DNA from: Anaerolineales bacterium
Lineage (GTDB): Bacteria > Chloroflexota > Anaerolineae > Anaerolineales > UBA11579
Reading direction: 5' to 3'
Assembly: GCA_050115475.1 (NCBI GenBank)
Contig: JASFQL010000012.1
Span: forward strand, 255-64,254
DNA length: 64,000 nt
Part shown: positions 32,191-47,525 of the stretch, one piece after another
How the letters are laid out: each line of letters starts with the position of its first letter
Numbering within the stretch: position 1 is the stretch's first letter
The notes under the pieces: model-generated
Seen by the model: only the letters and a program-made list of their open reading frames with translations
The model's database searches: none
What the model was told of the DNA's origin: nothing
Made by a program: the position numbers and the translations under genes

Positions 32191-32868
32191 ATGAAATCGA
32201 TCACCGATATTATTTCTGAAAACCCGATATTTCAAGCATTTCCAAAAAATACCTTGGAGGAACTGGGGAAAACCGCCCTCACAAAAGCCTATCAGGCCGG
32301 AGAGATCATCGTCCACCAGGGCGATCCATGGCCTTTTTTATTTATCGTAATCCAAGGGAAAGTGAATGCCGTAAAAGAATCTGCTGCCGGTCGTTCGCTG
32401 ATTGCCACCACCATCACTGAGGGAGAGATCTTTTGGGGTTTGGCCTTCTTCATCGAAAACGCCTCCATGCCCGTCGCCTTCCACGCTGGAGTAGACTCGA
32501 AAATCGCATATTGGCCGCGAGATCAACTCATGCCTGTTATCATTAAAAATGGGGAGGTTGCCTGGAAATTGTGCAGCATCATGATTAACCGCATGCAGAT
32601 TGCCAGTGATATCGTCGAAGAGTTGGCTTTTCTTCCCGTTGTTGGCCGCCTGGCAGGCTTACTCCTCGATACCTTCGGGGAAGATGAACATGAATTCGTT
32701 GCCCGTCAACTGACCCTTGATGACATGGCCGCTCGCATTGGCACCACACGTGAAGTTGTCTGCCGCCATCTTTATAAATTCGCAGAGAAAGGCATCATCG
32801 ATATCCGCAGAACCGAACTTCGCATTAATGACCGCGCCTTCTTGGAACAACAAGTTAGCAAGAGTTGA
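32191..32868 (+). CDS. Crp/Fnr family transcriptional regulator
   Basis: 225-aa ORF with a cNMP-binding beta-barrel (YQAGEIIVHQGD...FFIVIQGKV) and a C-terminal HTH (LTLDDMAARIGTTREVVCRHLYKF). Confidence 0.85.
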   Translation: MKSITDIISENPIFQAFPKNTLEELGKTALTKAYQAGEIIVHQGDPWPFLFIVIQGKVNAVKESAAGRSLIATTITEGEIFWGLAFFIENASMPVAFHAGVDSKIAYWPRDQLMPVIIKNGEVAWKLCSIMINRMQIASDIVEELAFLPVVGRLAGLLLDTFGEDEHEFVARQLTLDDMAARIGTTREVVCRHLYKFAEKGIIDIRRTELRINDRAFLEQQVSKS

Positions 32869-32869
32869 T

Positions 32870-33634
32870 ATGGATATCATCGGAAGTGGAAATATGGAAA
32901 AGGAACCCAAAGAGACCTCACCCGAAGTCATACCCGGCACCTGGAGCGATTTACTCCTCTACATCTTTGCAGGCTTTGGCCTCTACGTAGTTGCCAGCAT
33001 CCTGGTCAGCCTGCCTTTTCAGGAGATCGACCTGACCGTCACCACCCTGGCAATTCTTACGAACGTCCTCTTTATCGGGGGCGGCGCTTACGTGCTTGGA
33101 ATCCGTAGAAAGAAGATAACCTGGGCCAGCTTGGGTATCTCCCCACCGGTCTGGAAACCCGAATACCTCTTATGGGCTTTCCTCCTTGCTGTCGGATTGA
33201 TGCCCATCCGTGGGGTCATCGGACTTGTTGTTGAAATTCTCCTGGAAGGGGATTTCGACAACCTCCAACTTCGTTCTGATTTATTTACTGCCGGGATGGA
33301 CAACGGATATGCCTATTTGATTCTCCTCCTTGGCGTGGGGATACTCGCACCTATCTCTGAAGAATTGTTCTTCCGTGGTCTGATTTACAACTGGTTCCGT
33401 CAGCGCTGGGGCATGTGGGTTAGTATCTTGCTGAGTTCCATCTGGTTCTCCATCGGCCATATCGATTCCTTGGGGGTGGTTGCCTCTAGTTTTTTGATGG
33501 GTGGAGTGATTGCTTATGTCTACGAACGTACCAGATCTCTCTGGTTTGCGATTGCCATCCACCTCATTACCAATTCCATTTCTGTTTTATTGCTGATGCT
33601 CATTCAATTGATTTCTCCATATATCCCTGTATAA
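32870..33634 (+). CDS. CPBP family intramembrane glutamic endopeptidase (CAAX protease-like)
   Basis: Trimmed to ATG 32870, 1 nt after the Crp stop. Carries motif 1 SEELFFRG, motif 2 FSIGH and motif 3 HLITN on TM helices. Confidence 0.8.
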   Translation: MDIIGSGNMEKEPKETSPEVIPGTWSDLLLYIFAGFGLYVVASILVSLPFQEIDLTVTTLAILTNVLFIGGGAYVLGIRRKKITWASLGISPPVWKPEYLLWAFLLAVGLMPIRGVIGLVVEILLEGDFDNLQLRSDLFTAGMDNGYAYLILLLGVGILAPISEELFFRGLIYNWFRQRWGMWVSILLSSIWFSIGHIDSLGVVASSFLMGGVIAYVYERTRSLWFAIAIHLITNSISVLLLMLIQLISPYIPV

Positions 33635-33652: not shown

Positions 33653-34390
33653 ATGACCTTGACAGATTGGATTTCCTGTATCGTCCCGCTGATTTTTGCA
33701 GGGCTGATTGTCTGGCGATGGAGACAAACGAAAGGATCGTTCTGGGAAGCCTTTGGCGTAACGATAGATCGTCGCGTTCCTCTCGAATGCTTGGTTGGCT
33801 TCACCATTGGCGGGTTGGCAATGTTTGGTATTTTCGGTGTCGAATGGGCCCTTAAATTCATCCGCATCGATGGGTTGGCCGCACCCGGTGAGGATTTTTG
33901 GCCCTGGATCGTATTTTTAATCATCGCCGCATTATTAGAAGAAGTTCTATCGCGTTCTTTTATTCTGGGTGGATTGGTCCTTTTCCTAAAGGAGAATAAA
34001 TGGCTGGCTGTTGCTATATCCGCAGCTTTCTTCGGTTTAGCCCATGCAGCGAATCCAAACGCAACAATCATTTCCGTATTTGGGAATGCCCTTGGCGGGG
34101 TTATGTACGCCGTCGCCTTCTTGGAAAGTGGGCGGGTATGGCTGGGTTGGGGCTTGCATTTTGCCTGGAACTTCTTTCAAGGTCCCCTTTTAGGCTTCCC
34201 CGTCAGTGGCTTGACGGAAGGGGGAAGCATCCTCCAGCAAGTTGCCGTAGGTCCCGAGATCATCACTGGTGGCGCTTACGGGCCAGAGGCTGGGCTTGTG
34301 GGGATGTCCTTCCGCTTCGTTGTTATCGCCTTGCTGTACGCCTGGTTTTCTTGGGAGAAAAAACGTCCGCTTGTGGTCAATCCCCAATAA
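33653..34390 (+). CDS. CPBP family intramembrane glutamic endopeptidase, second copy
   Basis: 245-aa ORF with LEEVLSRS, FGLAHA and HFAWNF motifs. AGGAG lies upstream of the ATG. Confidence 0.8.
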   Translation: MTLTDWISCIVPLIFAGLIVWRWRQTKGSFWEAFGVTIDRRVPLECLVGFTIGGLAMFGIFGVEWALKFIRIDGLAAPGEDFWPWIVFLIIAALLEEVLSRSFILGGLVLFLKENKWLAVAISAAFFGLAHAANPNATIISVFGNALGGVMYAVAFLESGRVWLGWGLHFAWNFFQGPLLGFPVSGLTEGGSILQQVAVGPEIITGGAYGPEAGLVGMSFRFVVIALLYAWFSWEKKRPLVVNPQ

Positions 34391-34506: not shown

Positions 34507-37500
34507 TTATCTCACCTCGATCAAAACCGCTTCCACGATGATTCTGTCCGGGTACATTTGTAATACTTCATTATACTCCCCACACGTCATCAGAGTGACC
34601 CGGTCGTAAGCGTCGTGCTTGAAGATCGAGAAGTCTCGAGCTGACACTGTTTGGTTATCGAGTACCTGATAGATATATTCGTGACCCCAGGCATGGATGG
34701 TAAACGTGTCTCCCCATCGCATATCCTTGAGGTTGTAGAATGGTCCCGGCAACCCATCGGCGTTAACCACGTGGGCGGTAATGAAGGTATTCCCGGGTTG
34801 TCCGATCCCGGCTGTGCCGGCCAGATGCCCGGCTTGCTTCCCCAACCACGTCACTTCCCAACCCTTTTCCGTGAACGGGACCCCGACAATCGGTATATCG
34901 ATTCCCAATCGTGGGATCTCTATCCGGAAATCATTATAGCTTTGATAGGCAGATTCTTCTGGTTGCGGCGGAAGGACGGTCACCTCTCCCGGAGCGAAGC
35001 CTGTTTCCACTAAGAGTTCAACCCTCACGATAGACACATCCCCGTAAGTGTTTACCAGGTCGAGAGGATCGTAAGACCGCTCAACAGAAAGAATGTTGAA
35101 TGGGGATAGCGGTGTTGAGACATCACCCGGTAGACTGGTCCATTCTGCCGAGGCTTCATTGATGATCCCGCCAGGAGGGAAGGAAACGATTTCGACATCG
35201 AATTGGAAAGCCGCAATCTCTCCGGGACGGACTTCATCCCAAATAACTTGCAGGATGTTCCCCGGCAGGATGTTGAGGGTGGCGGGACCTGTAGCAGTGT
35301 TCGTCGAGCTGAGGATGAAGGTAGTAGCAGGATTGAAGAGGACTGTCCCTATTGGGACTTCATCCTGAGATTCGACATCGTAGGCGATGGAGTCGCTCAC
35401 GCCAGCATGCTCTATACTCACATAGAAGGTAATCACCTGGCCTGGAAGGGCTTGCGCCTGGCTGACTGACTTCGTAACAGACAATGTCGGTTCAATAACG
35501 GTCACATCATCCGTAGACTCAGGCCCAAGCTGGCTGACTTGTGTTCCGTTGTTCCACTCCCACGTTGCCGCGTTGTTCATGGTCACACCGCGCGTATTGA
35601 CAGAACTGTTCAGTACAATCGCCCGGTAGATGATTTCCACTTGTTGGGCGCTGGTCGTGTTGTTCGTAACTATCCCCAGGTTGAAGGTGATCAACCGGCC
35701 GTCGTCCGTGGGGGAGATATGTGGTGGGGCGCTGTCAATCACAGGATGTGTGCCCACTGATCCTGGTGGTGGTCCAAAGCCCTGGTCGCAGACAGTATTA
35801 CCCACGCTTAGGTTAGGTGCAGAAATAGCTGGAGCAGCAGTCCCATCACCGCAGCCCAAGAAGGCTAAACCTTGATCGAGCACATCTATCACGGTCGCAT
35901 CATTCATTGATACAGACCCAGGCGCAGGGGCTGATGCCCCCGGAACCTCTAACACCAGCCTATAAGTCAGGATGGTCCCCAACGTAGCCGGGATAGGGGG
36001 TGTGAAGGGGGGGCTTTGAGCTGGTTCGCTGACCGCGATGATCTCCTTACTCACCAGCCGCCCGACCACATCGTGGTCGTCATCCGATGCCTGTACGGGT
36101 ACACCACCGCTGTTGTTTCCGTCATCCTCGATGACAGCAGTATCGGAAATATGTGTGATACCCGCCGCTAAAGGATTATCGACGTCCACGGCGAAGTTCA
36201 CCGTATATATTCCCCCTGTCTGAGCATACAGGTTCCCCGTTGATGGTACTCCGTGACCCACGTCGACAATGTGTGTGCATACAGAACCAGCCGGCGCGCC
36301 GTCGCTGCAGCTCCACACACCCGATCCGCCGCTTTCAGCTTCATTGAAGGTCGTCCCCGTAGAAACCGTTTCAGTGATGAACACCCCTGTGGCGTCTTGG
36401 GTCCCCACATTATCGAAAGTGAGGAGGTAAACAATGGTCGATCCAGGAGCGGTGATATCGATGCTGTCATCTTTGACAATCGTCAGGATCGGCACTGCGT
36501 CCGTCGGGGCGGAGTCGCTGTCTTCGTTGTTCGCAGGCGTTGGTTCTGGCCCGTCCTGGGCTTCGTTGTAAGCGATCGAAGCCGTGTTGTCGATAGTGTC
36601 GATGCCGGCCGGTAGTGGGTCCACAACGGTCACGGCGAAATTCACCGTGCCTTGATAAATGTGCGTCCCCGGTGGGCTGGGGTCGTTCGCCCCATGCAGG
36701 ATCCCCGCGCCCAAACCTGCGTCGATGGTATGCGTACAGGTCGTCCCCGCTGGTGAATTGTTTGCGCAACTCCACACCCCCGCGCCGCCGCTGGCAGCCT
36801 CGTTGAAGGTCGTTCCATCTGGGACAGTGTCTGTAATCGTCACACCGTTTGCCGTTCCCGAGCCGTCGTTATAGTAATCGAGTGTAAAAGTGACGATGCT
36901 GCCGGGCACGTATGGTCCGCCGGCAGGAGCGATTTTATCGATTCTCAGGTCGGGGTTTATGACCGTCACAGTCTCGACATCGCTATTCGAATCGGTCCGG
37001 TCGTTGGCCGTATCCTCTGGAAGTGACGACCAGTCCACCTGGACAGCGTTGTCGAGTAAGATGGCCGTCGCGCTCGTCACATCGACCACATTCACGTCGC
37101 CCGGTGCTGCGATCTCTGCGCGGTAGGTGAAAGTGACCGTCTGCCCAACATCGATCATCGTTCCTGTATAGGCTGTACCGGGTGTCCACGCTGCCGTATC
37201 CGCCGTAAAGCTGATGACTTGAGGGGTAGGAGGTGTGGTGCTCGGTTTTGTGATCGTCCATCCGGCGGGTGCAGTCGTGTTGACGTCGTCGATATAGGTC
37301 ATCCCCGCAGGTATCGTATCGGTAATCACCGCCTGGTAAGCCGGTGCGGTGCCGTTGTTGGTCACCTCGATGCTGTATTCGATGACTGCCCCCAGGATAG
37401 CCGTGCCGCTTGCAGGTGTGACCACGGCGGCGGTTTTATCGATATCCAGAATAGGCACAACCACGTCCACGTCGGTTGTGACAGTTGGATTGGGAACAAC

Positions 37501-40500
37501 CGGATTGTTGTTGTCCACTTCGCCGGTGTTGGCCAGGTCGTCGCCGTCTTGGTTTTCGCTGTCATCGATGAGGACCGCGACCACTTCCACCCGCACCCGA
37601 TCGTTGTCGTTGGGTCCCAGGTTATCGGCGACGTTGACCACGTCTCCGAAATCGAAGGTCACCGTATCGTTGCCAGGGTTGATCGTCCCGGGACTTCCTA
37701 CCGATAAAATGCTCCCGGTGATGTTCGCGCCGATGTGCAGCACCTGTGAACTGACCGCTTCCAGGATGCCCGCATCAGGGGGCACCGTCGGGAGGTGATC
37801 TGTGATGGTCAGTGGGATCGTCGATCCTTCTGGCAGGGTGACTTCGATCACGAATGTCACTTCCTCCCCGATGGTGAGGTCGATGTCTATCCCATCGTGC
37901 TGGCTGGAGGTCGTTTCCACGACCGTTGTACCCGTGATCGCCTTGGTGATAGCTGGGTCTGTAATGTTGAAGTCTACGCTGTCGCTGGCCTCATAATCGT
38001 GGGTCTCGCCGTTCGGTAAAGTCGTGTCGCCCGTACGTTCCACAGAGAGCGGGTTGGGGGCAATCGGTGTTGTCTCATCGCCCGGCAAACTCGTCCAGCG
38101 GTTAATCGCCTCGTTTGTCACCACCAGGGAAGGTTCCACCGTATTCGCCATCGCCCCATCGATGGTTAAGGTAATGATGTGCGGGTCGGCGCCATCCAGC
38201 AAAACGTCGAAGGCTGTCACCGTCGATAGTGTATAGCCGGTCGCGTCGCTGCCTGTGAGGCTGAAGTTTGCGCTCGTCACCAACGATTTCGTATCGCTTA
38301 CCGTCAAAGTCAGCGGTCCCTGGATGTAAGATTCTCCAGAGCCGTTCACCGGCAGTGCGTCGTCCAGGGTCACGTCCAGTGCGTCGATGCTGCTGGTCGC
38401 CAGGTCGTGGCTGATGACAATTTCGTATGAGATGGCATCCCCCGCGTCGCCCACAGAAGCGCCCGCGATCGTCTTATCGACTTCGAGAAGTGCCTCTTTG
38501 ACCTGGACGGTAGTCGAGGAAGTCTGTGTTTGGACGTTGGGCGGGACGCCCCAATACCACGTCGCCGTGTTATGCAAGTCGAAACCATCTATGTTGACGG
38601 CTGCGTTCAAGACAATCGCTCGGTACCGCAGCACGATCTGTTCGTCCGTGCCGTTATCTGTATCCGAGTTTGTAACGATCCCGAAGTCCAATGTCAGCCT
38701 GCGGTCCTGGTTGATATCGCCGGCTCCTTCATCGCTGACGATGGCATTTGCGGCTACCTGTGGGAAGCCGCCGGGTATGGTCGTAGATAAGCCCGGTGAG
38801 GCAGACACCAGGGTAACAATCGGGCTGTCGTTTGCCATGAACGCCATCCCCTGGTCGAGGAGGTCGTCGAAGTCTACAGGCTGGGAGGTGCCCTCAGGCA
38901 GTGTGATGGCCACCTGGTAGGTGACGATCTCCCCGATAGCCGCTTCAACGGGAACAGCCAGATCGGATGTGTGAGCCTGGTCCGTCCCCACAAGCGTCTT
39001 CCCGACGACCGCGTTGTTGATTTGTAAAGTCGCATCGTCTGTATCGGTGTAATCATCCCGCTCGGTCGAGTCGGGGTTGTGCGTCGATTGCGGTGTGCTT
39101 ACGTCCCCATCGAGACTCGACCAAAAGATTTCCGCCTCGTTGATGATATCGCTCCCTGGTGATACAGAGATTCCCAGCGTGCCGCTGAAGCTTAGCGTGA
39201 TAGTGCGTGCAAGGTCATAAGGAAAATCGAAAGGCGTCACGGTGGTGAGTGTTCGCCCGGTAAGGTCGAAGTAGCTTGCATCCACAATCCCATCTGTATC
39301 CACCACACTGTCTAAAGAAATGCTGTCGACTTCAGTCGGGAATTCCTCTTCCAGGGTCACCTCGAAGGCATCCGTTTGTGAATCTGTGGGGTTGTGTTGG
39401 ATGATAAACGTATAAGTGACCGGGTCGCCGTAATCGCCTGTGTTCGGCACCACGTCCTTGTCCACATCCAGGTCTGGTTCGATCACCTCGACTTCGTTAG
39501 CGCTGTCTGTTAAAGAAACCCGCCCGCCGGCATCATCATCCCATTCCCATATTGCCTCGTTGTTCAACACCGTGACCGGGGCCGGTAAACCGTTATTCCC
39601 CAGCACATCCAATACGACGGCGCGGTAGACGATTTCGAGCGTCTCTTCCGTTGTATTATCGTTGTCGCTGTTGGTTAGTGTGCCGAAATCGAAGGTGATG
39701 CGATTCCCCGTTCCGCCGTTTGCGTTGCTGATGACGGCATTATCCATAATGTCGTAAAATGTGCCTGCACTCGAAGAGATGAGTGAGGTAGGTGTGCCGC
39801 CGTGCAGTGGGGTGATCGAATCTGGGGGCGTTGGCAGCGATTGGTCGATGTCCATGAATGCCAGGCCGGCATCCAGGGTGTCGACCAGGGTCACGTTCTC
39901 AGATTCGCCTTCAGGCACGACTACGGTGAGTTTATAGATGACGACTTCGCCGATAGCGACCTGCAGTCCGCTGGTAAATCCTTGATTGGTATCGTCTACG
40001 TCTTTTGTCAGCCCGAAGTTGGCAGCCGCTGTGGTTGAGTCGTCGGTATGTACCCCTTCCGTGGGATGGTCCCCCGGGCCGCCTGCATGGACGTGGTTGG
40101 TTCCACCATCCTCGCCGGCGTAGTTCTCCAGGGTAGCTGTATTGGGAATTTCTACCAATGGCGTGATATCTGGATCGATTTCCAGGTCGTAGGTGATGAT
40201 GACGATATTCGTGCCCGCCGCAGGAGTGTACCCCTGGCAGATGCCCTGGTTGATATTGTCGTTCAGTTCGATGCCGTCGCCAAATAAGTCCCTGGGGTCT
40301 CCATTCGGGCCTAGATAGCTGATCCCCGGCGAGGCAACCAGGTCGGTGCCGTCGCCGAGATATACCTGCAGGTTCAGGTTGTTGTAATCATCCCCCGGAT
40401 ATCGGTATCCCGTTGGGAGGACATCTGTTATCACGATGTCGAAAGCGCCTTTACTGCTGTGCCCTGTGTTCTCGATGATGATGGCGAATTTGACTAGGTC

Positions 40501-43323
40501 GCCGTCTCCGGGCGGTGTTGCCTGGTCTCCCCCATCCACGTCGCTCACATCTGCGTCGATGATCCCTGCGCCGCTGCCGTCGTCGTTGATATATCCGGTC
40601 CCCGCCCCATTGGACGTGATTGGCCCGCCGCTCCACGGAGGTGAGCCTGGGTTGCCGGGGTCGGTCCAGCTGATCCCCGGAGGGGCTACCGAACCCGTAA
40701 AGGTTCCATTCGGGTTGCTGGTTGAAACAGCGCCTTTCTTGATGGTCAAGAGCGGCTCTTCGATGATAATCTGCACGATATCGTCATTGAATTGGTTCCC
40801 CGCGTTCGTCGAACTTTCCCCGCCGGTTCCCTGGTTGGTCAGGTACAGCAGGTCGGCGAACGGCTCGCTGGAGACTGTTGCCGTAAGTAGTACGTCGATG
40901 ACCGACTCTAAGGAAGGATCGATATCGAAGTTCCCGTAATAGATATCGATGCTGTTCGACGCCGGAAAAGCTGTGACCGTGGGCAGCGGTGCCCCTAATA
41001 GGTGCTGTGTGTCCGATGGATGGTACGCCACCACGCCCGGCCCTGGGACGCCTGCGGGAGGCCAGGTGGAGTCGAAAGACCAACTCGACGAACCGGTCTG
41101 GGCTGGGTCGGACACATCGAATATGGGCGAAGGCAGGAAATCGGTTAACACCAGCTCTTCGTAATCACTGGTGGGGAGGGTGAAAGTCAGGCGGTAGGTC
41201 ACCTCGTCCCCCGGTTCTACCAGGGGCGGTGTGGCAAAGGGGCTGTACGTATACGATGTTCCATCGAAAAAGGCATACACTTGCTTGGTCAATTCGCCCC
41301 TCGGGATCGTGATGTCCACGTCGCTGTTATCCGGGACGCGGTTGCTGAGATCGGTTAGGTCGATTGTATTGACCAGTAAGCCGTCGATGTCCACCTCGTT
41401 GGTGAGTTCATCGCCCTGGTCGACGCTCTCATCCCCGTTGCCGGGTATCAGGTAGATGTCCGTAAACTCTTCCTGGATGACAGTCTGGAAGGTGATCGTG
41501 CCGGTGGTCGGGCCATCGTCCACTGGGACAGGTGTTGGTGGAGAATCGCTGCAGTCCAGCGATCCCACCCCGATCCCGCCGCTGTCCACACAGCCGCCCA
41601 AGAGCGTACCTGCGGCAGAGCCGCTGCCCCCGCTCCAGGTGCGGAAAATCAACTCATCGGATACACGGAATTCAATCACCGTATCTCCATCCTCATAGGG
41701 GGCTGGAGCAGGAACCCCATCGCTGCCCCCTGTAAAATACTCCCAAACCGTATAATTGCTCGAATCGAACGCTGCTGTCGTATAGGTGCTCCCATGTTCG
41801 ACCAACGTCAGCGTTGGAGTACCTGTCAGGCGGTGTCCGTCGCCGATGATATCGGTGATGACGATGTCCCGGAAGGCAAAATAATCCGAAATCTGGAAAT
41901 CGATCGTGAATGTGAGAACGTCACTCGGTGAATACCCCGTAGGGGGATTATCCGTGAGGATGTGCCCTTTTTGGATCGCAATCGCCTGATCGCTGACCGT
42001 TACCGAGGGCGTGCACACCGGGCAGGGACCGCCGGTGACGGTGATGGGTTGGATGCCGGGTGTGCCCAGGTCGCCGTCGTCGCGCGCATCGATAGGCACC
42101 CAATCCCCGGTCGAGTCTATCGTGTTGACGGATGAGTTTGCTGCCCCTGTATCTGCCGGGACGATGACTCCGGATGTGTTGTCGATTCGAGGGATAAAGA
42201 AATCATACGTGATCGTGATGTCATCCCCTGCCCCGCCGGTGATCGAATTGTACCTGAAAGACATCGTCGCCCCGTTGGCGGGTGTCGCCCCGACTGCAGG
42301 GACACCCGAAGCCGAGTCATAGGCGGGGCTGGCGCTGATCCCCCCCAAATAGGTGATTTCCCCGTCAAAGGTATCGATCACATCCAGGTTGCTGATGGTC
42401 TGTCCCTCGGCGATGTCGACCGTAAGTGTATACGTATGGGGGAAGTTAGGACCTGTCGCAGTCTCCCCCTCTGCAGGGTCTTGGGCTTTCGAGACCGTCA
42501 TCAAGACTGGGCTGACCGGCGAACTCGACCAGGTGCCCATGATGACCGTCGGGTCGCAGCAGGGGTCGTCCAGGGGATTTTCACCGTACCGGAAACCGCC
42601 CCGCGCCTCGATGTCCAGCGCTGTGCCGGGGTCGGCCAGATCGCTCAACGATGCCTCGACAGTAATGGTAGCAGGAGACTGCTCTTGTGTGAAAGAACCG
42701 AAGGGAAGCAGGGCAATAACGAGTTGGTCGCCAGGAGTGCCGCACACGGGGATAGGTTCACCCAGCGTATCCAGAGCGTAAGGGTGATCGATCCGCCCGT
42801 CGCCGCCGGGGTAGCAGTCAGGGTCGGCGGGGTCAAGAGCGGGAAAGACGGCGTCGTAGGTCTCCAGGGAGAGGCCCTGGTAGGTCACATCTTGGGAAGC
42901 ATTATTGAAAAAGACCCCATCTGGTGTATCCGTACCCGCCGCGCCGTCGGCCCCGTTGCGGGGCAGGATGATATCGACGTAAGGCCCATAACCAATATCA
43001 CCGCTGGTGTTGCTGAAGTCGATCGTGAAAGTGAAATCGTTTCCCAGCATCACGCCGGAGGGGACGTTCACGCTTACGCTGGGCGCAGGTTGGAATAAAA
43101 ATCTTACAGCTCCGGAGCTTTGCGGGTCTCCGGGGGATGGATCGCTGTTAATATCATTTGAAGGGATTGAACTCGCCTCGGATCCAAAATCATCTTGAGC
43201 GTAGGCAGGTGGCAGAGAGCCTATTAATGGACTGAATGCGGTGCTTACCCAAATGATTGCGATGAGGAATTTAAATGCTCGACTGAGTCGGCGACGGTTA
43301 ACGAGGGTAGTACGTCCTGCCAT
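34507..43323 (-). CDS. Giant (2,938 aa) secreted repeat protein: DUF11 / pilin-like isopeptide-type domains with a C-terminal sortase domain
   Basis: Single uninterrupted 8.8-kb ORF with GGAG 8 nt upstream. N-terminal signal peptide (FKFLIAIIWVSTAFSPLIGSLPPAYA-QD). Multiple L-x-(V/I)-(D/T)-K...G-x-x-(I/V)-x-(Y/F) domain starts (e.g. LDIDKTAAV..., LRIDKIAPA..., LTIVKDDSI..., LSVTKSVSQ...). The last 168 aa carry sortase signatures (see findings). Confidence 0.9.
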   Translation of the reverse strand: MAGRTTLVNRRRLSRAFKFLIAIIWVSTAFSPLIGSLPPAYAQDDFGSEASSIPSNDINSDPSPGDPQSSGAVRFLFQPAPSVSVNVPSGVMLGNDFTFTIDFSNTSGDIGYGPYVDIILPRNGADGAAGTDTPDGVFFNNASQDVTYQGLSLETYDAVFPALDPADPDCYPGGDGRIDHPYALDTLGEPIPVCGTPGDQLVIALLPFGSFTQEQSPATITVEASLSDLADPGTALDIEARGGFRYGENPLDDPCCDPTVIMGTWSSSPVSPVLMTVSKAQDPAEGETATGPNFPHTYTLTVDIAEGQTISNLDVIDTFDGEITYLGGISASPAYDSASGVPAVGATPANGATMSFRYNSITGGAGDDITITYDFFIPRIDNTSGVIVPADTGAANSSVNTIDSTGDWVPIDARDDGDLGTPGIQPITVTGGPCPVCTPSVTVSDQAIAIQKGHILTDNPPTGYSPSDVLTFTIDFQISDYFAFRDIVITDIIGDGHRLTGTPTLTLVEHGSTYTTAAFDSSNYTVWEYFTGGSDGVPAPAPYEDGDTVIEFRVSDELIFRTWSGGSGSAAGTLLGGCVDSGGIGVGSLDCSDSPPTPVPVDDGPTTGTITFQTVIQEEFTDIYLIPGNGDESVDQGDELTNEVDIDGLLVNTIDLTDLSNRVPDNSDVDITIPRGELTKQVYAFFDGTSYTYSPFATPPLVEPGDEVTYRLTFTLPTSDYEELVLTDFLPSPIFDVSDPAQTGSSSWSFDSTWPPAGVPGPGVVAYHPSDTQHLLGAPLPTVTAFPASNSIDIYYGNFDIDPSLESVIDVLLTATVSSEPFADLLYLTNQGTGGESSTNAGNQFNDDIVQIIIEEPLLTIKKGAVSTSNPNGTFTGSVAPPGISWTDPGNPGSPPWSGGPITSNGAGTGYINDDGSGAGIIDADVSDVDGGDQATPPGDGDLVKFAIIIENTGHSSKGAFDIVITDVLPTGYRYPGDDYNNLNLQVYLGDGTDLVASPGISYLGPNGDPRDLFGDGIELNDNINQGICQGYTPAAGTNIVIITYDLEIDPDITPLVEIPNTATLENYAGEDGGTNHVHAGGPGDHPTEGVHTDDSTTAAANFGLTKDVDDTNQGFTSGLQVAIGEVVIYKLTVVVPEGESENVTLVDTLDAGLAFMDIDQSLPTPPDSITPLHGGTPTSLISSSAGTFYDIMDNAVISNANGGTGNRITFDFGTLTNSDNDNTTEETLEIVYRAVVLDVLGNNGLPAPVTVLNNEAIWEWDDDAGGRVSLTDSANEVEVIEPDLDVDKDVVPNTGDYGDPVTYTFIIQHNPTDSQTDAFEVTLEEEFPTEVDSISLDSVVDTDGIVDASYFDLTGRTLTTVTPFDFPYDLARTITLSFSGTLGISVSPGSDIINEAEIFWSSLDGDVSTPQSTHNPDSTERDDYTDTDDATLQINNAVVGKTLVGTDQAHTSDLAVPVEAAIGEIVTYQVAITLPEGTSQPVDFDDLLDQGMAFMANDSPIVTLVSASPGLSTTIPGGFPQVAANAIVSDEGAGDINQDRRLTLDFGIVTNSDTDNGTDEQIVLRYRAIVLNAAVNIDGFDLHNTATWYWGVPPNVQTQTSSTTVQVKEALLEVDKTIAGASVGDAGDAISYEIVISHDLATSSIDALDVTLDDALPVNGSGESYIQGPLTLTVSDTKSLVTSANFSLTGSDATGYTLSTVTAFDVLLDGADPHIITLTIDGAMANTVEPSLVVTNEAINRWTSLPGDETTPIAPNPLSVERTGDTTLPNGETHDYEASDSVDFNITDPAITKAITGTTVVETTSSQHDGIDIDLTIGEEVTFVIEVTLPEGSTIPLTITDHLPTVPPDAGILEAVSSQVLHIGANITGSILSVGSPGTINPGNDTVTFDFGDVVNVADNLGPNDNDRVRVEVVAVLIDDSENQDGDDLANTGEVDNNNPVVPNPTVTTDVDVVVPILDIDKTAAVVTPASGTAILGAVIEYSIEVTNNGTAPAYQAVITDTIPAGMTYIDDVNTTAPAGWTITKPSTTPPTPQVISFTADTAAWTPGTAYTGTMIDVGQTVTFTYRAEIAAPGDVNVVDVTSATAILLDNAVQVDWSSLPEDTANDRTDSNSDVETVTVINPDLRIDKIAPAGGPYVPGSIVTFTLDYYNDGSGTANGVTITDTVPDGTTFNEAASGGAGVWSCANNSPAGTTCTHTIDAGLGAGILHGANDPSPPGTHIYQGTVNFAVTVVDPLPAGIDTIDNTASIAYNEAQDGPEPTPANNEDSDSAPTDAVPILTIVKDDSIDITAPGSTIVYLLTFDNVGTQDATGVFITETVSTGTTFNEAESGGSGVWSCSDGAPAGSVCTHIVDVGHGVPSTGNLYAQTGGIYTVNFAVDVDNPLAAGITHISDTAVIEDDGNNSGGVPVQASDDDHDVVGRLVSKEIIAVSEPAQSPPFTPPIPATLGTILTYRLVLEVPGASAPAPGSVSMNDATVIDVLDQGLAFLGCGDGTAAPAISAPNLSVGNTVCDQGFGPPPGSVGTHPVIDSAPPHISPTDDGRLITFNLGIVTNNTTSAQQVEIIYRAIVLNSSVNTRGVTMNNAATWEWNNGTQVSQLGPESTDDVTVIEPTLSVTKSVSQAQALPGQVITFYVSIEHAGVSDSIAYDVESQDEVPIGTVLFNPATTFILSSTNTATGPATLNILPGNILQVIWDEVRPGEIAAFQFDVEIVSFPPGGIINEASAEWTSLPGDVSTPLSPFNILSVERSYDPLDLVNTYGDVSIVRVELLVETGFAPGEVTVLPPQPEESAYQSYNDFRIEIPRLGIDIPIVGVPFTEKGWEVTWLGKQAGHLAGTAGIGQPGNTFITAHVVNADGLPGPFYNLKDMRWGDTFTIHAWGHEYIYQVLDNQTVSARDFSIFKHDAYDRVTLMTCGEYNEVLQMYPDRIIVEAVLIEVR

Positions 43324-43493
43324 AATGCTTCTCCAAGGCTTATTCTTTTTTATGATGCTAAATTGACTAATTATATACCGATTAGCCCATTAGTACCATC
43401 CCTCACAATAAACTTAAATATTCATTATCAGCCGGTCGATATTCATTTTTCATCAATTTCCATCTCCCCGATTGTAAAAAATTTCTAATCCAT

Positions 43494-43530
43494 AAAAAAA
43501 CTGCCCGTTAAGATAGCCTAACGAGCAGTT
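43494..43530 (-). terminator. Intrinsic terminator after the FG-GAP gene, separating it from the giant gene
   Basis: On the - strand: AACUGCUCGUUA-8 nt-UAACGGGCAGUU (12 bp, one G-U) followed by a U7 run. It lies 85 nt after the FG-GAP stop. Confidence 0.7.
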
Positions 43531-43615
43531 TACTTCCATTTTTTTATCTCCTTATATAGAAACCTCTCCTTTGATTTGACTGACTATAAAATCCTTCCTT
43601 CAACTGCATTCAATC

Positions 43616-45385
43616 TCAATAAATCACGTAGACTTCGCCAGCCTCCGGGCGTGTGTTGTTGGGTCCGAAAGCGTAGTTCGCCCCCACCACAATATCGATC
43701 GCATGATCTCCATTTACGTCGCCGCAAGAGATCGCCGCCCCCAGAAAATCGTAGCTTTCTGCCCCATAGATAGTGATTCCAGCTGCATCCGGGTCTGACA
43801 GGTCGATGTCGCTGCCGGTGGAGATCGTTCGCCCATAGATCACGTAGGCCTCTCCTGTATATTGATTGCGGGTATTCCCCGGCCCTGCGCCGCCGGTAGC
43901 CCCCAAGAGAACGTCGGCGCTTCCATCATCGTCAACATCCCCACAGGAGACTGAAGATCCCAGATTGTCGCCCGCATCCGCGCCGTAAATTGTTGCATCT
44001 GCTGGGGCTGCTGAAAGGTCCATCGGCGTAATCCAGATTTGGCGCCCCAAGATGATGTAAGCTTCTCCCGCGGCTGCTTTTAGGTTGCCAACTCCCCCTG
44101 CGCCGGGCGCACCGATGAGCAGGTCGCCAAACGAATCACCGTTGGCGTCGCCCATCCCTAATCCGAGAAGCGAGCTGAAGGTGTCTCCGCTGTCCACGCC
44201 ATAAATGGTTACGTCTGCACTTTGCGTGGATAGATCCACAGGGGATATCGCTCGCCACGCCTCTCTATCTCGCCCGAAGAACAGGGTAACTTCTCCTGCG
44301 TCAGGTTTTCCGTTTTCCTCTCCATCTCCCTGGTAGGCGCCGATTGCCAGGTCGGATACCCCATCCCCGTTCAGGTCTTCCCCACTCGCCAGGGCGCTTG
44401 AAAATTTGTCGTCCACGTCCGCCCCATAGATGGTCACGTCGGCAAGCTCTGGGGAGGCTGATAGATCGACCGGCGACATCATCTTCCAATCTTCAGCCGG
44501 GCGGCCGAAAAACACGTAGCTTTCCCCTGCATTGCTGGTATCGTTCCCTTCCCCGTCGGCGTAGCATGCGCCGACGAATAGGTCATCGGTTCCATCTCCA
44601 TCCACATCCCCCGTCGCCAATCCGCACCCCAGTAAATCCTCTTCGTCTGCACCGTGGATGACGACGTCAGGCGCAGGCCCGGCTTCTCCGGCCGCATCGA
44701 AGATAACTGGTTCTTCAGGAGAGGGACGCAGAAGATCCCACTCCTCTTGGGATCGCCCGAAGATGATATAGACAGCGCCTGAATCGGGCAATAAATTCCC
44801 TTCGCCGTCAGCCAATGAGGAAGCAACAATGAGATCGTCGTAGGGGTCTCCATCCAGGTTCCCCATCGTAATGACTTCACCCATACTATCCCCGGCGATG
44901 TATAAGCTGGAAGCGATACCTAATTCCTCTCCATAGATACGGATATCTGGCTGTGGACCTTCAATCCCCGCCACGTCGATTTGGGAAGGAAGATCGCTTT
45001 TCCCAAACACAACGTAAGCTTCTCCGGCGTGGTCGCGGGAGTTATTCGGGCCGTCTGCCCCACTGGCACCCGTAAGGATATCCTTGATTCCATCGCCGTT
45101 GTAATCCCCCACGGCTAAAGAAGCGCCCAACATGTCTGCTGCCTGTGAATTTAAATTGTTGCTGTCCTCGCCAAATAGGGTCATATCTTGCTCGTGATTG
45201 TAAATATCTACGACTTCAGGTTCAGGGAGCGGTAGTTCGCTTGGCGGTGCTGTGGTCTGTGAAGGGGGCAATGTCGGCTCAGGGCTGGTATCCTCTGTTG
45301 GGGCTGTCGTTCCCGTGCAAGAAACGAGAAAAAATACAGCCCCGAGAACAAAACATAAGATAAATAGAATTACTTTCCTGTTCAC
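43616..45385 (-). CDS. FG-GAP repeat (integrin-alpha-like, seven-blade) lipoprotein
   Basis: 589-aa ORF with a GTG start 5 nt after AGGAGG and lipobox FFLVSC-TG. It contains seven Ca-binding-type repeats (GDYNGDGIKD, GNLDGDPYDD, GDVDGDGTDD, EDLNGDGVSD, GDANGDSFGD, GDVDDDGSAD, GDVNGDHAID), each followed by the h-h-h-G-A pattern. Confidence 0.85.
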   Translation of the reverse strand: MNRKVILFILCFVLGAVFFLVSCTGTTAPTEDTSPEPTLPPSQTTAPPSELPLPEPEVVDIYNHEQDMTLFGEDSNNLNSQAADMLGASLAVGDYNGDGIKDILTGASGADGPNNSRDHAGEAYVVFGKSDLPSQIDVAGIEGPQPDIRIYGEELGIASSLYIAGDSMGEVITMGNLDGDPYDDLIVASSLADGEGNLLPDSGAVYIIFGRSQEEWDLLRPSPEEPVIFDAAGEAGPAPDVVIHGADEEDLLGCGLATGDVDGDGTDDLFVGACYADGEGNDTSNAGESYVFFGRPAEDWKMMSPVDLSASPELADVTIYGADVDDKFSSALASGEDLNGDGVSDLAIGAYQGDGEENGKPDAGEVTLFFGRDREAWRAISPVDLSTQSADVTIYGVDSGDTFSSLLGLGMGDANGDSFGDLLIGAPGAGGVGNLKAAAGEAYIILGRQIWITPMDLSAAPADATIYGADAGDNLGSSVSCGDVDDDGSADVLLGATGGAGPGNTRNQYTGEAYVIYGRTISTGSDIDLSDPDAAGITIYGAESYDFLGAAISCGDVNGDHAIDIVVGANYAFGPNNTRPEAGEVYVIY

Positions 45386-45680: not shown

Positions 45681-46520
45681 TTGGAAAAAGTAATCATCAC
45701 CGTGGCCCTGGTCGGTTCAAGACCAACAAAAGACCTCAATCCGGCCGTCCCTTACTCCCCGGAGGAAATTGCCAATTCCGCCCTGGATGCCTGGCGGGCT
45801 GGGGCAGCCATCGCCCATATCCACGTGCGCGATCCCAAAACCGGCGAACCTTCGCACCAATTGGAATTATTCCAGGAAGTCGTGGAACGTGTCCGCAGCG
45901 AGTCGGACATTCTCTTGAATCTGACCACCAGCGGACAATTTATCCAGGGGGATGATATGGAGATGATCGAAAAACGCTTGGCGCCCATGTCATTGCATCC
46001 TGAAATTTGTTCCTTCGATGTCGGCTCGCTGAACTTCCAGGATCGCATTTTCACCAATCCACCTGCCTGGGGATTGGATGCGGCTGCCAGGATGCAGGCG
46101 GCTGGCGTCAAACCGGAGATCGAGGTCTTCGATACCGGTCACATCGCCCAGGCCGTTGATCTCATCGACAAAGGTCTTATCGATGAACCGCCCTGGTTCC
46201 AGCTTTGCATGGGGGTCAAGTGGGGCATCCCGGGAACGATAGAAAATCTTGAATTTATGGCGAAGCAATTGCCTGACAAGGCTCGATGGTCGGCTTTAGG
46301 CGTTGGCAGGCTTCAAGATACCATTATCTCTAAAGCCATTCAGATGGGCGGCCATATCCGCGTGGGGCTGGAAGATAATCTCTATTTGAAAAAGGGCGTC
46401 CTCGCTCAAAGCAACGCCCAGTTCGTAGAAAAAGCCGTCTCACTGGTTCATGAATTTGGGCGCCAGGTGGCCGCACCCGACGAAGCCAGGGAAATATTAA
46501 AGATTAAGAAACATGCGTGA
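45681..46520 (+). CDS. BKACE family enzyme (3-keto-5-aminohexanoate cleavage enzyme-like, DUF849)
   Basis: 279-aa ORF with a TTG start 8 nt after [33 protein letters not shown]...[17 protein letters not shown] is the BKACE N-terminal signature. Confidence 0.85.
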
Positions 46521-47043
46521 CCGTACCCCCTTATTCCTCCTGCTTGTTGCCGTACTCCTTGCAGGACTGACCTGGCATCTTAAAGGTCCCGAAACGGTTC
46601 TGGAAGGGTTTGCCACAGGGATGGACATCCTCTTGAGTGTCGTTCCTTTGCTGGTTGCCGCTTTTCTTGTCGCCGGATTGGTGCAGGTATTGGCGACCAG
46701 GGAGTTGATCACCAGGTGGATAGGCGCTTCGAGCGGATGGAAAGGGATCGCCCTGGCCTGTTTGGGCGGGGGATTGATGCCCGGCGGACCCTACGTCTAT
46801 TACCCCATTACAGCCGTTCTCCTCCAAACCGGGGCTGGTCTGGGACCCCTGGTCGCTTTCGTGACCGCCAAGAATCTCTGGGCGTTTTCGCGATTACCGC
46901 TGGAGCTTGCCCTCCTCGGCTCTCAACTGACCCTCTTCCGATTCCTGGTGACCTTTGCCCTGCCGCCTTTATTGGGATACCTGGCTGAGAAGTTATTCGG
47001 GCATCGACTGGAAGCCATCCGCCAGGGGGCTGGATCCTCATGA
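46513..47043 (+). CDS. Permease half-protein (DUF318/ArsP_1-like, SMU_747c-type)
   Basis: 176-aa hydrophobic ORF with the [14 protein letters not shown] motif. Overlaps the BKACE gene by 8 nt. Confidence 0.55.
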
Positions 47044-47525
47044 CCACGGCCACGGTTATTCTATGGGTCATTGCCGCCGCCCTTTTCCTTTTCGCTCTGG
47101 CGAAGAAAGATGGCAGTTATCGACGAGGGGCCGTCCAGGGATGGGAGACTCTCAAACGCAATTTCTGGGTCCTTGTTCTGGCATTTATCATCGTCGGGTT
47201 CGTCAATGTGCTCTCCCCTCAGAATCTGGTTCACAAGTACCTCGGCCCTGATTCCGGCTGGGGGGGATTATTTCTCGCCGAAGCGATTGGTATGCTGCTT
47301 CCGGGGGGGCCTTACGTGGTCTTCCCCCTCATCGCCGTCATCTACTCGCAAGGCGCAGGCCTCGCCCCTGCCGTAGCCCTTGTGACCGGTTGGGCGGCTG
47401 TTGCGCTGCTGACGGTTACCTTCGAGCTGCCCTTTATGGGCTGGCGCTTTGCTGCCATTCGCTGGGGATTAGGGCTGTTAGCGCCCATCATCGCCGGCGC
47501 CGTCGTGATGCTTTTCTTCTCGTAG
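47040..47525 (+). CDS. Permease half-protein, second subunit (SMU_746c-type)
   Basis: 161-aa hydrophobic ORF with the paralogous motif GMLLPGGPYVVFPLI. ATGA overlap with the previous ORF. Confidence 0.55.
   Translation: MTTATVILWVIAAALFLFALAKKDGSYRRGAVQGWETLKRNFWVLVLAFIIVGFVNVLSPQNLVHKYLGPDSGWGGLFLAEAIGMLLPGGPYVVFPLIAVIYSQGAGLAPAVALVTGWAAVALLTVTFELPFMGWRFAAIRWGLGLLAPIIAGAVVMLFFS

Follow-up and report, generated by a model that had tools for sequence, protein, structure and literature searches.

A candidate self-sorting C-terminus in proteins of Anaerolineae: LPxTG-type motif, tether and anchor-less sortase in a single chain

Why does a giant secreted protein end in a sortase placed directly behind a sorting-type motif? 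Sortases are anchored in the membrane, turn over many times and work on substrates encoded as separate proteins, which are themselves held in the membrane by a transmembrane (TM) helix and a tail. In the window, the stretch of 64,000 nucleotides of an Anaerolineales bacterium analyzed here (assembly GCA_050115475.1, contig JASFQL010000012.1), enzyme and motif occupy one polypeptide. This arrangement was first noticed in an earlier note on the same DNA, which offered two readings: a module that cleaves and anchors itself, or a transpeptidase displayed at the far end of a giant stalk.

The gene is preceded by a GGAG Shine-Dalgarno sequence 7 nt 5′ of its ATG and comprises the following parts:

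34507..43323, minus strand: whole gene, 2,938-aa secreted protein plus stop codon (ORF call, translation)
43198..43323, minus strand: Sec signal peptide, about aa 1-42 (hydropathy and direct sequence reading)
35014..43197, minus strand: cargo, aa 43-2770 (Pfam/NCBIfam profile matches and repeat ends)

The predicted signal peptide consists of an RRR n-region, an h-region at aa 19-37 and an AYA|QD cleavage site. Its h-region is the sole hydrophobic segment in the 2,938 aa (KD19 1.94; runner-up 1.53). The cargo begins with an N-terminal region lacking any family match and continues as a stalk of RrgB_K2N-type isopeptide and CLIPPER/DUF11 domains, CLIPPER being a DUF11 isopeptide domain (PMC12617251). 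Stalk units end in W[ST]SLxGD at aa 1401, 1743, 2098 and 2728. The stalk matches PF01345 at 103.6 bits (cut-off 24.6, four stretches), TIGR04226 at 122.9 bits (cut-off 30, three stretches) and TIGR01451 at 124.3 bits (cut-off 24). By profile match, the protein is an adhesin-like giant of the fibrillar, isopeptide-domain type.

Behind the stalk lie the motif, the tether and the enzyme. All coordinates given earlier (the open reading frame, LVETG at aa 2771-2775 and nt 34999-35013, and the catalytic His, Cys and Arg) proved correct:

34996..35013, minus strand: LVETGF, aa 2771-2776, predicted scissile bond Thr2774-Gly2775 (family alignment)
34921..34995, minus strand: tether, aa 2777-2801 (APGEVTVLPPQPEESAYQSYNDFRI), about 25 aa (family alignment, AlphaFold2 model)
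34510..34923, minus strand: sortase catalytic domain, Pfam match aa 2801-2934, protein end at aa 2938 (Pfam, NCBIfam, AlphaFold2, Foldseek, hydropathy)
34771..34773, minus strand: catalytic His2851 (ITAH, after β4), present in 122 of 122 family modules
34582..34584, minus strand: catalytic Cys2914 (TLMTC, end of β7), present in 122 of 122 family modules
34543..34545, minus strand: catalytic Arg2927 (start of β8), present in 121 of 122 family modules

Against a cut-off of 26.6 bits, the PF04203 Sortase model scores 70.8 over aa 2801-2934 when run on the whole protein and 76.5 when run on the C-terminal 197 aa; TIGR01076 sortase_fam scores 41.8 and 47.7 bits, respectively (cut-off 39.35). For the last 230 aa, AlphaFold2 gives a model with pLDDT values of 86-98 from the motif onward and below 50 immediately upstream of it. 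Foldseek aligns this model with many solved sortases (E 3e-10 to 1e-9, TM ≤0.80 on target), 2KW8 among them. The predicted fold is an eight-strand barrel within a catalytic domain of 138 aa, and neither a TM segment nor a tail lies C-terminal of the barrel. In the model, His, Cys and Arg sit after β4, at the end of β7 and at the start of β8, which is the canonical sortase topology. Profile, fold and triad topology agree, and the domain looks like a real and complete sortase, as the earlier note had read it.

By both sequence and fold, the module lies closest to class C sortases (2xwg, 3g66, 2w1j). Unlike canonical sortases, the module comes near no class cut-off of NCBIfam (about 23-49 versus 140-166 bits). 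The class C model NF033745 gives 43.0 and 49.2 bits, far under its cut-off of 160; class D gives 29.9-35.7 versus 165, SrtD 30.8-37 versus 140, class E 24.2-30.4 versus 160, class F 42.4 versus 166 and class GN 22.6-28.3 versus 158. No NCBIfam model dedicated to this type of module was found. A class C lid was also considered; the DP[W/F/Y] sequence before β1 is not conserved among the 122 modules (columns D51/G21/E15, L/M/I and W35/T20/R18), and the window copy reads NDFR at this place.

Between motif and barrel runs the tether, with the family pattern A-P-G-x-x-T-x-L-P-x-Q-P-x4-Y. In the window copy it is modelled as packed onto the sortase domain (pLDDT 90-96), and motif plus tether are confidently placed on the domain in two AlphaFold2 models (pLDDT 86-96 for the window, 84-94 for P0015). 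No hidden TM segment follows the motif in the window protein, where KD19 stays at or below 1.22 throughout. The claim that neither a TM helix nor a basic tail follows LVETG, so that the enzyme occupies their position, is borne out by hydropathy, HMM and fold.

Compared with the canonical class A-F systems, the module has the same fold, the same His/Cys/Arg triad and an L-P-x-T-G motif after an adhesin-like stalk. The chemistry implied by these residues would also be the same, a Thr thioacyl intermediate followed by transfer to an amine. However, enzyme and substrate form one polypeptide, with the enzyme standing where the TM helix and charged tail would be, and the catalytic domain has no membrane anchor beside it, either N- or C-terminal. 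The sorting signal differs as well: its Gly is followed by a conserved Phe and the conserved tether, and no hydrophobic helix or positive tail lies within about 35 residues after the motif.

The arrangement of motif, tether and sortase is a family trait of hundreds of Anaerolineae (Chloroflexota) proteins. It was followed in 122 distinct modules (genome loci and first matches) and in 140 metagenome cluster representatives. The locus sample was gathered with two peptide patterns and is therefore biased to close relatives; the spread is documented within Anaerolineae. The family consensus is [L/I/A]-P-x-T-G-F, with P kept in 120 of the 122 modules, T in 121, G in 122 and F in 121, against 122, 122 and 121 for His, Cys and Arg. 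P-T-G-F and H-C-R are kept together in 136 of the 140 metagenome representatives. The four motif residues are as constrained as the catalytic ones, and the near-invariance of the scissile T-G fits a true substrate. A six-frame scan of related DNA (1.2 Mb) for [LIAMV]PxTGF placed 79 occurrences directly before a sortase module and two elsewhere, which argues that an LVETG-type motif at this place is not due to chance. The earlier note suspected that other Chloroflexota proteins end in a similar xTGFAPG-linker-sortase; this proved correct and is a family rule in modules from both loci and metagenomes.

The window copy is an atypical member, with LVETGF as the only Val-for-Pro motif among the 122 modules, a remodelled loop and 56% identity to the consensus. 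It could be impaired.

The module is always found at the extreme C-terminus, followed by a tail of median 2 and at most 40 aa, and no TM segment was detected in 78 distinct family modules or tails (maximal KD19 ≤1.63). The cargo ranges from 285 to more than 6,000 aa and includes Ig-like, β-helix, cadherin, CLIPPER and PT-repeat regions. Since unrelated cargo is joined to a constant module, the module acts in the manner of a sorting signal that can be moved between proteins. In related CLIPPER giants that lack it, a classical motif, TM segment and basic tail occupy the same place. Some genomes encode several intact copies, sometimes in tandem, and the triad is kept in all of them. Keeping one enzyme per substrate implies a single turnover, and is expected for stoichiometric action rather than for a reusable enzyme.

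The neighborhood offers no partner. A scan of the window upheld the statement that it holds no canonical LPXTG+TM substrate elsewhere, and all-against-all clustering of neighboring ORFs gave no conserved partner gene; its clusters consist of antisense shadow ORFs and of generic ABC ATPases, about as frequent as in the background. The 1.2 Mb of flanking DNA likewise contains neither a stand-alone sortase nor a canonical LPXTG+TM substrate, which counts in favor of a module that works by itself. Beside the giant gene lie an FG-GAP lipoprotein gene and two CPBP/CAAX protease genes, which were considered as partners; they do not recur beside 80 related loci. An Rfam scan of the window returned nothing.

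Two loops of the domain bear on the coupling between motif and sortase:

34621..34632, minus strand: short helix of the β6/β7 loop, FSIF, aa 2898-2901, module columns 129-132 (AlphaFold2 model, covariation)
34789..34818, minus strand: β3/β4 loop, aa 2836-2845, GTAGIGQPGN (AlphaFold2 model, family alignment)

The β6/β7 loop forms the sorting-signal pocket in SrtA and SrtB. In an alignment of related sequences with a Neff of about 220, where the signal stems partly from a few clades, the strongest covariation partners of motif position P4 are columns 132 (z 5.3) and 129 (z 5.2), which sit i/i+3 on the loop helix. These pairs rank 19 and 21 among about 13,000 long-range pairs. Leu at P4 goes with Leu132, while Ala, Met, Thr or a gap goes with Phe132, a pattern that looks volume-compensating. 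The β3/β4 loop has the family consensus GTAFPTWxGN and is uniquely remodelled in the window version. Its column 71 is non-Pro in two of the 122 modules, the window copy and L081, the latter of which keeps APETGF. In a class E sortase, this loop contacts motif position P3 (PMC5148588). The only copy with a Pro-to-Val motif is thus also remodelled in the loop that contacts P3 in class E, and this coincidence was counted in favor of the self-sorting reading that follows.

The last 168 aa, we consider with modest confidence, form a self-contained, single-turnover self-sorting module in which motif, tether and anchor-less sortase would together cleave their own T-G bond and pass the cargo to an envelope amine. 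The giant protein would be exported by Sec and lose its signal peptide, after which the isopeptide-stabilized stalk would fold. The motif would then dock in the groove of an attached sortase, most likely that of the same chain, though it could be that of a sister molecule. Attack of Cys2914 on Thr2774-Gly2775 would yield a thioacyl intermediate with the cargo. An envelope amine, in a peptidoglycan stem peptide or precursor or in another surface polymer or protein, would resolve this intermediate, fixing the cargo covalently through its C-terminal Thr. The 164-aa sortase domain, now starting with GFAPG, would be discarded after this one turnover. The arrangement points to self-cutting and self-attachment of each protein, with no reliance on a separate membrane-bound sortase. 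A stricter version of this proposal, an autosortase that serves as portable C-terminal signal and enzyme, cleaves LPxTGF in cis, holds the cargo as a thioester, ligates it to the envelope and is then discarded, is plausible, although we stop just short of calling it probable.

For four reasons, a self-acting module is favored over display of the enzyme at the stalk tip. The cleavable signal peptide leaves a displayed enzyme no base; the cargo is unrelated between members and the module constant; the scissile T-G and the triad are kept family-wide; and the motif covaries with the substrate pocket of its own domain. The proposal has difficulties of its own. The tether, as modelled, could equally hold the motif rigidly off the active site of its own chain, which would favor action in trans, and the Gly-starting leaving group would stay nearby, so that the reverse reaction could compete.

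Among the alternatives, the most likely by a narrow margin is release or maturation. Here the T-G bond would be cut and the intermediate resolved by water, the sortase being shed as a C-terminal propeptide that aids export or folding and the cargo being left free or non-covalently held. A soluble sortase domain has no obvious means of staying near membrane-bound lipid II, which counts against self-sorting and speaks for such a hydrolytic outcome. Sortases do hydrolyze their substrates when no nucleophile is available, a property used in self-cleaving tags (PMC2901362), and the invariance of motif and triad fits equally well. However, a distal N-terminal region, a stalk, sometimes a long PT-rich spacer, and an LPxTG motif together make up the architecture of a wall-anchored fibrillar adhesin, and a transpeptidase fold would be odd for simple proteolysis. 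Release is unlikely.

Assembly in the manner of pili is likewise rather unlikely. In this scheme, the sortase of one molecule would cut the LPxTGF of another and link it to a third molecule through a Lys or N-terminal amine of the latter, generating covalent fibers or a mesh of giant subunits. The closest sequence and fold matches are indeed pilin-polymerizing class C enzymes, the stalk domains (RrgB_K2N, CLIPPER) are pilin-like, the packed tether might present the motif outward, and the covariation fits homotypic recognition in trans as well as in cis. Yet the class C model stays far under its cut-off and no DP[WFY] lid is present, a YPKN-type pilin motif was looked for in the giant and not found, and no common acceptor Lys is apparent because the cargo is unrelated between members. 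Moreover, one enzyme would be discarded per joining event.

The placement of the motif on the domain could also be read as a pseudo-substrate lid, in which an uncleaved LPxTGF would autoinhibit the groove, and the enzyme borne by the giant would act on other proteins. The N-terminal segments of class C sortases and of B. anthracis SrtA reach the active site, motif and tether are modelled as docked, and a lid would also yield motif-pocket covariation. As in class C sortases, the stretch N-terminal to the barrel is predicted to rest on the catalytic domain; unlike in these, this stretch is LPxTG instead of DP[W/F/Y], and a TM anchor and linked pilin genes are lacking. Pseudo-substrates normally lose the scissile T-G, which is near-invariant here. 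No LPXTG+TM proteins were found near 81 loci, whereas class C sortases adjoin their pilins, and the removal of the signal peptide would leave the stalk without a base. The diversity of cargo and the several copies per genome are also hard to explain for the carrier of one enzyme, and this reading is quite improbable.

The weakest alternative, that a housekeeping sortase encoded elsewhere cleaves the motif and the fused domain has another role such as binding or regulation, draws on the generic housekeeping character of LPxTG and on the chance that such a gene lies outside the 1.2 Mb of flanking DNA and the window, in which no stand-alone sortase was found, but it is very improbable given that a classical enzyme needs the TM helix and charged tail that its substrate lacks here, that the triad shows strict conservation across about 260 modules and that the motif covaries with the pocket of the attached domain.

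In favor of the self-sorting module, engineered BISOP-type fusions provide a precedent (PMC2901362). They too combine sortase and LPXTG in one chain and self-cleave at T|G, offering a proof of principle that such chains are chemically competent. They are, however, artificial and ordered sortase-LPXTG-target, and they serve protein purification through hydrolysis or added glycine, whereas the module is natural, has the order cargo-LPxTGF-tether-sortase and recurs in hundreds of species. The proposed logic would also parallel Hedgehog autoprocessing. There, the catalytic domain at the C-terminus makes a thioester where it meets the cargo, a nucleophile from outside takes over the cargo, which is thereby anchored covalently, and the domain is discarded after one use (PMC4695875). 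This is an analogy only: the Hint fold is unrelated to the sortase β-barrel, the catalytic domain of Hedgehog begins with its Cys, which in the sortase is a distant active-site residue, and the acceptor is cholesterol instead of a presumed wall amine.

The giants share their size, signal peptide, isopeptide-domain stalk and C-terminal anchoring element with CLIPPER/DUF11 and RrgB-type fibrillar adhesins, the known members of which end in LPXTG+TM, OmpA-like or other anchors (PMC12617251; PMC9210967). Both surveys sought sortase motifs in the last 50 residues only; in the present family the motif sits some 165 residues before the C-terminus, so that its members would count as motif-less. Full-text searches of the literature turned up no account of LPXTG and sortase fused in a natural protein. 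If the self-sorting proposal is true, it would expose this blind spot and give protein engineers tags of natural origin that cleave and ligate themselves. The idea is directly testable, since the family has small members, such as LPxTGF proteins of 921 aa (Pelolinea submarina MO-CFX1) and 495 aa, and cultured hosts (Pelolinea submarina, Levilinea saccharolytica, Longilinea arvoryzae).

Filamentous Anaerolineae are abundant yet poorly understood, and are common in sludge, sediments and soils. Self-sorting, if true, would be a new principle of surface display, with one enzyme per cargo and no membrane component, and would explain how these bacteria attach giant adhesins to their unusual monoderm-type envelope. 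Should the autosortase reading also hold, bacteria would have in this module an equivalent of Hedgehog autoprocessing, Anaerolineae would use it as their main or only sortase pathway, and sortase-mediated anchoring would work without any membrane-embedded component.

The giant gene of the window encodes a secreted, adhesin-like protein whose C-terminal 168 residues read LVETG-FAPGEVTVLPPQPEESAYQSYNDFRI-EIPRLGIDIPIVGVP...ITAH...TLMTC...DRIIVEAVLIEVR*. The positions that the earlier note had assigned to the motif and the catalytic residues proved exact when re-read from the sequence:

34507-43323, minus strand: giant ORF, 2,938 aa
34999-35013, minus strand: LVETG motif
34771-34773, minus strand: catalytic His2851 (in ITAH)
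34582-34584, minus strand: catalytic Cys2914 (in TLMTC)
34543-34545, minus strand: catalytic Arg2927

A full-length hydropathy scan finds a sole hydrophobic segment, the signal-peptide core (aa 19-37, then AYA/QD), and none after the motif, in agreement with the first reading. Upstream of the module (motif, tether of ~25 aa and sortase domain without membrane anchor), profile searches match three RrgB_K2N-type isopeptide domains and several DUF11 domains. DUF11, since renamed CLIPPER, is CnaA-like, carries an intramolecular isopeptide bond and is typical of fibrillar-adhesin stalks (PMC12617251). These matches thus give a layout of signal peptide, N-terminal region without family match, repetitive stalk and motif, which is that of wall-anchored Gram-positive adhesins except for the part after the motif. 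The G+C content is 0.56-0.57 across the giant gene (36001-44000) versus ~0.50 in the remaining window, which probably reflects a composition rich in Thr, Asp, Gly and Pro, not foreign origin.

By profile, triad and predicted fold, the C-terminal domain belongs to the sortase superfamily, as the earlier note had proposed. Against the Pfam Sortase profile PF04203 (cut-off 26.6), aa 2801-2934 score 70.8 bits within the full protein and the isolated C-terminus 76.5 bits, and the generic NCBIfam sortase model also scores above its cut-off. None of the NCBIfam class models C, D, E, F and GN comes near its own cut-off (24-49 bits versus 140-166), and the domain lies outside every curated sortase class. 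By sequence, the solved structures closest to it are those of class C sortases (E 2e-6). AlphaFold2 models the last 230 aa with pLDDT of 86-98 from the motif onward and below 50 just before it, and Foldseek places this model among solved class C, E, A and D sortases (E 3e-10 to 1e-8). In this model the His follows β4, the Cys ends β7 and the Arg starts β8, the arrangement seen in solved sortases (PMC11231552).

Used as a protein query, the last 230 aa retrieved 45 relatives (40-53% identity) from Anaerolineales and Chloroflexota metagenomes, annotated merely as 'sortase' or 'LPXTG-site transpeptidase'. The sequence x-P-x-T-G-F-A-P directly precedes the sortase core in 45 of 45, bearing out the earlier note on xTGFAPG-linker-sortase C-termini in other Chloroflexota; the closest module relatives of the window copy are Anaerolineales. 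Scanning a single genome for each GTDB species, with two peptide patterns and so in favour of close relatives, gave 129 relatives, and 80 of these 129 loci were taken for analysis. Almost all belong to Anaerolineae, among them the isolates Levilinea saccharolytica, Longilinea arvoryzae and Pelolinea submarina; Brevefilum fermentans (a MAG) is also among the family-bearing loci. One member lies on a contig binned as 'Bacteroidota' (locus L061) and agrees with a member binned as Anaerolinea (L062) in ORF length, in motif and at 49 of the first 50 residues; it is probably binning contamination, not evidence for the family outside Chloroflexota.

Among 122 distinct modules extracted with an HMM of the module, the motif is as conserved as the active site: Pro is found in 120, Thr in 121, Gly in 122 and Phe in 121, next to the catalytic His (122), Cys (122) and Arg (121), while the first position is L in 83, I in 17 and A in 14. 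The tether follows the pattern A-P-G-x-x-T-x-L-P-x-Q-P-x4-Y. In every extracted copy the module forms the protein end (0-40 residues after it) and none contains a hydrophobic helix. Both features suggested earlier for inspection in homologues, an LxxTG-like motif upstream of the core and a terminal, anchor-less domain, recur in the family. Across 1.2 Mb of related DNA, [LIAMV]PxTGF precedes a module 79 times and is found at two other places. An exhaustive profile search against 1.84 billion cluster representatives yielded 2,622 matches at E<=1e-30; the full module stands at the extreme C-terminus in 140 of the 153 sequences examined (median tail 2 aa, median length 2,378 aa, longest 6,026 aa), with P-T-G-F and H-C-R all intact in 136 of the 140. 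Judged from these sequences, a motif-sortase C-terminus is a family rule, not a one-off. The window copy is a divergent member: its motif is LVETG, its β3/β4 loop is remodelled and it shares 56% identity with the module consensus.

Two members carry a tether insertion of ~30 aa between the LPxQP…Y segment and β1 (L038, 8197-10251; L063, 6662-10597), which indicates that tether length tolerates doubling. At L029 (9965-10567), a 201-aa ORF has an intact sortase core and a frame broken at the expected motif site (…AAEDRLRPRQVT…), and probably represents a pseudogene, or else an assembly error.

The protein parts upstream of the module, its cargo, are unrelated among members and include Big_12, HYDIN-type Ig, β-helix repeats, Flg_new, cadherin and CLIPPER, some being without known domain. 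Members range from 285 aa to several thousand, most beginning with a signal peptide. The full ORF of protein P0015 (L082, 5301-8981) is 1,226 aa long, and the 326 aa reported by gene callers are just its tail. This ORF encodes a signal peptide, a globular domain and a (TDTPTP)n stretch of ~600 aa, reminiscent of the Pro/Thr-rich spacers with which sortase substrates span the wall; the repeat also gives rise to a false antisense gene. Protein P0004 (L001, 4386-11104), 367 aa as called, overlaps a 1,883-aa ORF, probably due to a frameshift. Gene callers shorten both proteins, and database lengths for the family are therefore unreliable. Among the 80 loci, at least 13 genomes contribute two loci each, and three loci hold tandem module genes with differing cargo (L070, 3762-7985 and 8144-10501; L080; L081); the upstream copy at L081 has LPTTGR in place of LPxTGF. 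The distribution is one enzyme per cargo, and no recurring neighbour gene family was found beside module genes at related loci. The same search also yielded two CLIPPER-repeat giants without the module, P0103 and P0122; in these, …KTGG or …VPNTN precedes a terminal TM helix and basic tail. These classical anchors stand at the equivalent place, so that the enzyme occupies the membrane-retention position of the classical signal.

The giant gene has its own Shine-Dalgarno sequence, an AT-rich upstream region and a terminator-like hairpin on its 3′ side. Its neighbours are:

43616-45385, minus strand: FG-GAP repeat protein, 589 aa, lipoprotein-type signal (…FFLVSC), immediately upstream
32717-33634 and 33653-34390, plus strand: tandem CPBP/CAAX (Rce1-like, PF02517) intramembrane protease genes, downstream and convergent
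32191-32868: Crp-type regulator, adjoining the protease genes

A terminator-like T-run separates the FG-GAP lipoprotein gene from the giant gene, and the former is not found beside family members at other loci. Some other C-terminal sorting signals are processed by CPBP proteases; the linkage of these protease genes to the giant gene is not kept in 80 related loci. The 64-kb window encodes no other sortase and no protein with LPXTG, TM helix and tail, as first read. Elsewhere in the window, two adjacent, overlapping ORFs (46513-47043 and 47040-47525, plus strand; 176 and 161 aa) both align with one N-terminal stretch of the permease profile ArsP_1 (PF03773; 11-138 and 16-133 of its 294 positions), and look from these matches like tandem half-size paralogues or a two-gene permease, not two halves of one gene.

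Several signals bear on whether the domain reads its own motif. AlphaFold2 places motif and tether confidently on the domain in the window protein (pLDDT of the blocks 86, 96) and in P0015 (84, 94), an independent second model with canonical LPNTGF; the linker before the motif is uncertain in both. Covariation, scored by mutual information with APC correction, was computed for 256 distinct modules (Neff about 220); these sequences are related, and shared ancestry confounds the signal. For the first motif position, P4 (L, I, A, others), the two strongest couplings are with alignment columns 132 and 129 (z 5.3 and 5.2; ranks 19 and 21 of ~13,000 long-range pairs). These columns sit i/i+3 on a short β6/β7-loop helix (residues 190-193 of the 230-aa model); of 79 variable columns, just 2 find both of their top partners in this helix. 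P4 Leu pairs with Leu132 in 140 of 197 cases, and Ala, Met, Thr or a gap with Phe132 in 31 of 35, a pairing that looks compensatory. In SrtA and SrtB, the first sorting-signal residues lie in a pocket formed by the β6/β7 loop. At the second position, P3, Val for Pro occurs in the window copy only, and a non-Pro residue at β3/β4-loop column 71 in that copy and one other module (loop GTAGIGQPGN versus consensus GTAFPTWxGN); this is a single-case hint that the domain reads its own motif. The β6/β7 loop is described as a sorting-signal pocket in SrtB (PMC11231552), and in a class E sortase P3 is read by the β3/β4 loop (PMC5148588). Together, these signals are supportive, not conclusive, of an attached motif sitting in the canonical groove of a domain of its own kind; they fit cis and homotypic trans alike, and substrate and lid alike.

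We read the module, with moderate confidence, as a self-contained, single-turnover sorting device. After Sec export and signal-peptide removal, the motif would dock in the groove of the attached sortase domain and Cys2914 would attack the Thr2774-Gly2775 bond. The cargo would then be held as a thioester and passed to an envelope amine, with loss of the 164-aa domain starting GFAPG; we infer the cleavage itself, its intramolecular course and the acceptor. A soluble domain would still have to find its acceptor, the packed tether may hold the motif either in or away from its own active site, and the Gly leaving group, remaining tethered, could favour the reverse reaction. In B. anthracis SrtA (2KW8, among the Foldseek matches), an N-terminal appendage directly before β1 reaches the active site. 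The same is possible for the corresponding segment in class C lids (PMC11231552), and engineered sortase-LPXTG fusions self-cleave (PMC2901362); these precedents make the mechanism feasible. 

Self-cleaving release by hydrolysis agrees with the missing membrane anchor and is nonetheless unlikely, being a poor fit to the adhesin-like architecture. Intermolecular, pilus-like polymerisation matches the class C resemblance, yet the giant protein has no pilin motif and there is no common acceptor, which makes it improbable. An uncleaved pseudo-substrate lid on a displayed enzyme, which the pocket signals would also fit, is quite improbable given an invariant scissile T-G, no other substrate near 81 loci, a cleavable N-terminal signal and diverse cargo. 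Cleavage by a separate housekeeping sortase is very unlikely, given the absent TM helix and tail, the conserved triad and the motif-pocket coupling.

The self-contained sorting module would resemble a classical sortase with its LPXTG signal in mode of working, but the fused enzyme lacks the membrane anchor of the former, and the hydrophobic helix and charged tail of the substrate are missing after the motif. Its logic is similar to that of Hedgehog autoprocessing, in which a thioester first joins the cargo to a C-terminal domain, the cargo is next anchored by an external nucleophile, and the domain is then thrown away (PMC4695875), although the folds are unrelated. NCBIfam release 20.0 holds no dedicated model for the fused arrangement, databases name the proteins simply 'sortase', and a 2024 structural review of sortases mentions neither fused nor Chloroflexota sortases (PMC11231552). 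In the full-text literature searched, outside which a mention is possible, no natural LPXTG-sortase fusion is described, and no use of 'fused sortase' or 'C-terminal sortase domain' concerns this arrangement. Two large adhesin/isopeptide surveys sought sortase motifs in the last 50 residues only (PMC12617251; PMC9210967), a limit by which the family would be missed. This suggests that the natural motif-sortase fusion was previously undescribed. The stronger finding is the family rather than the window gene itself: its module behaves like a portable sorting signal.
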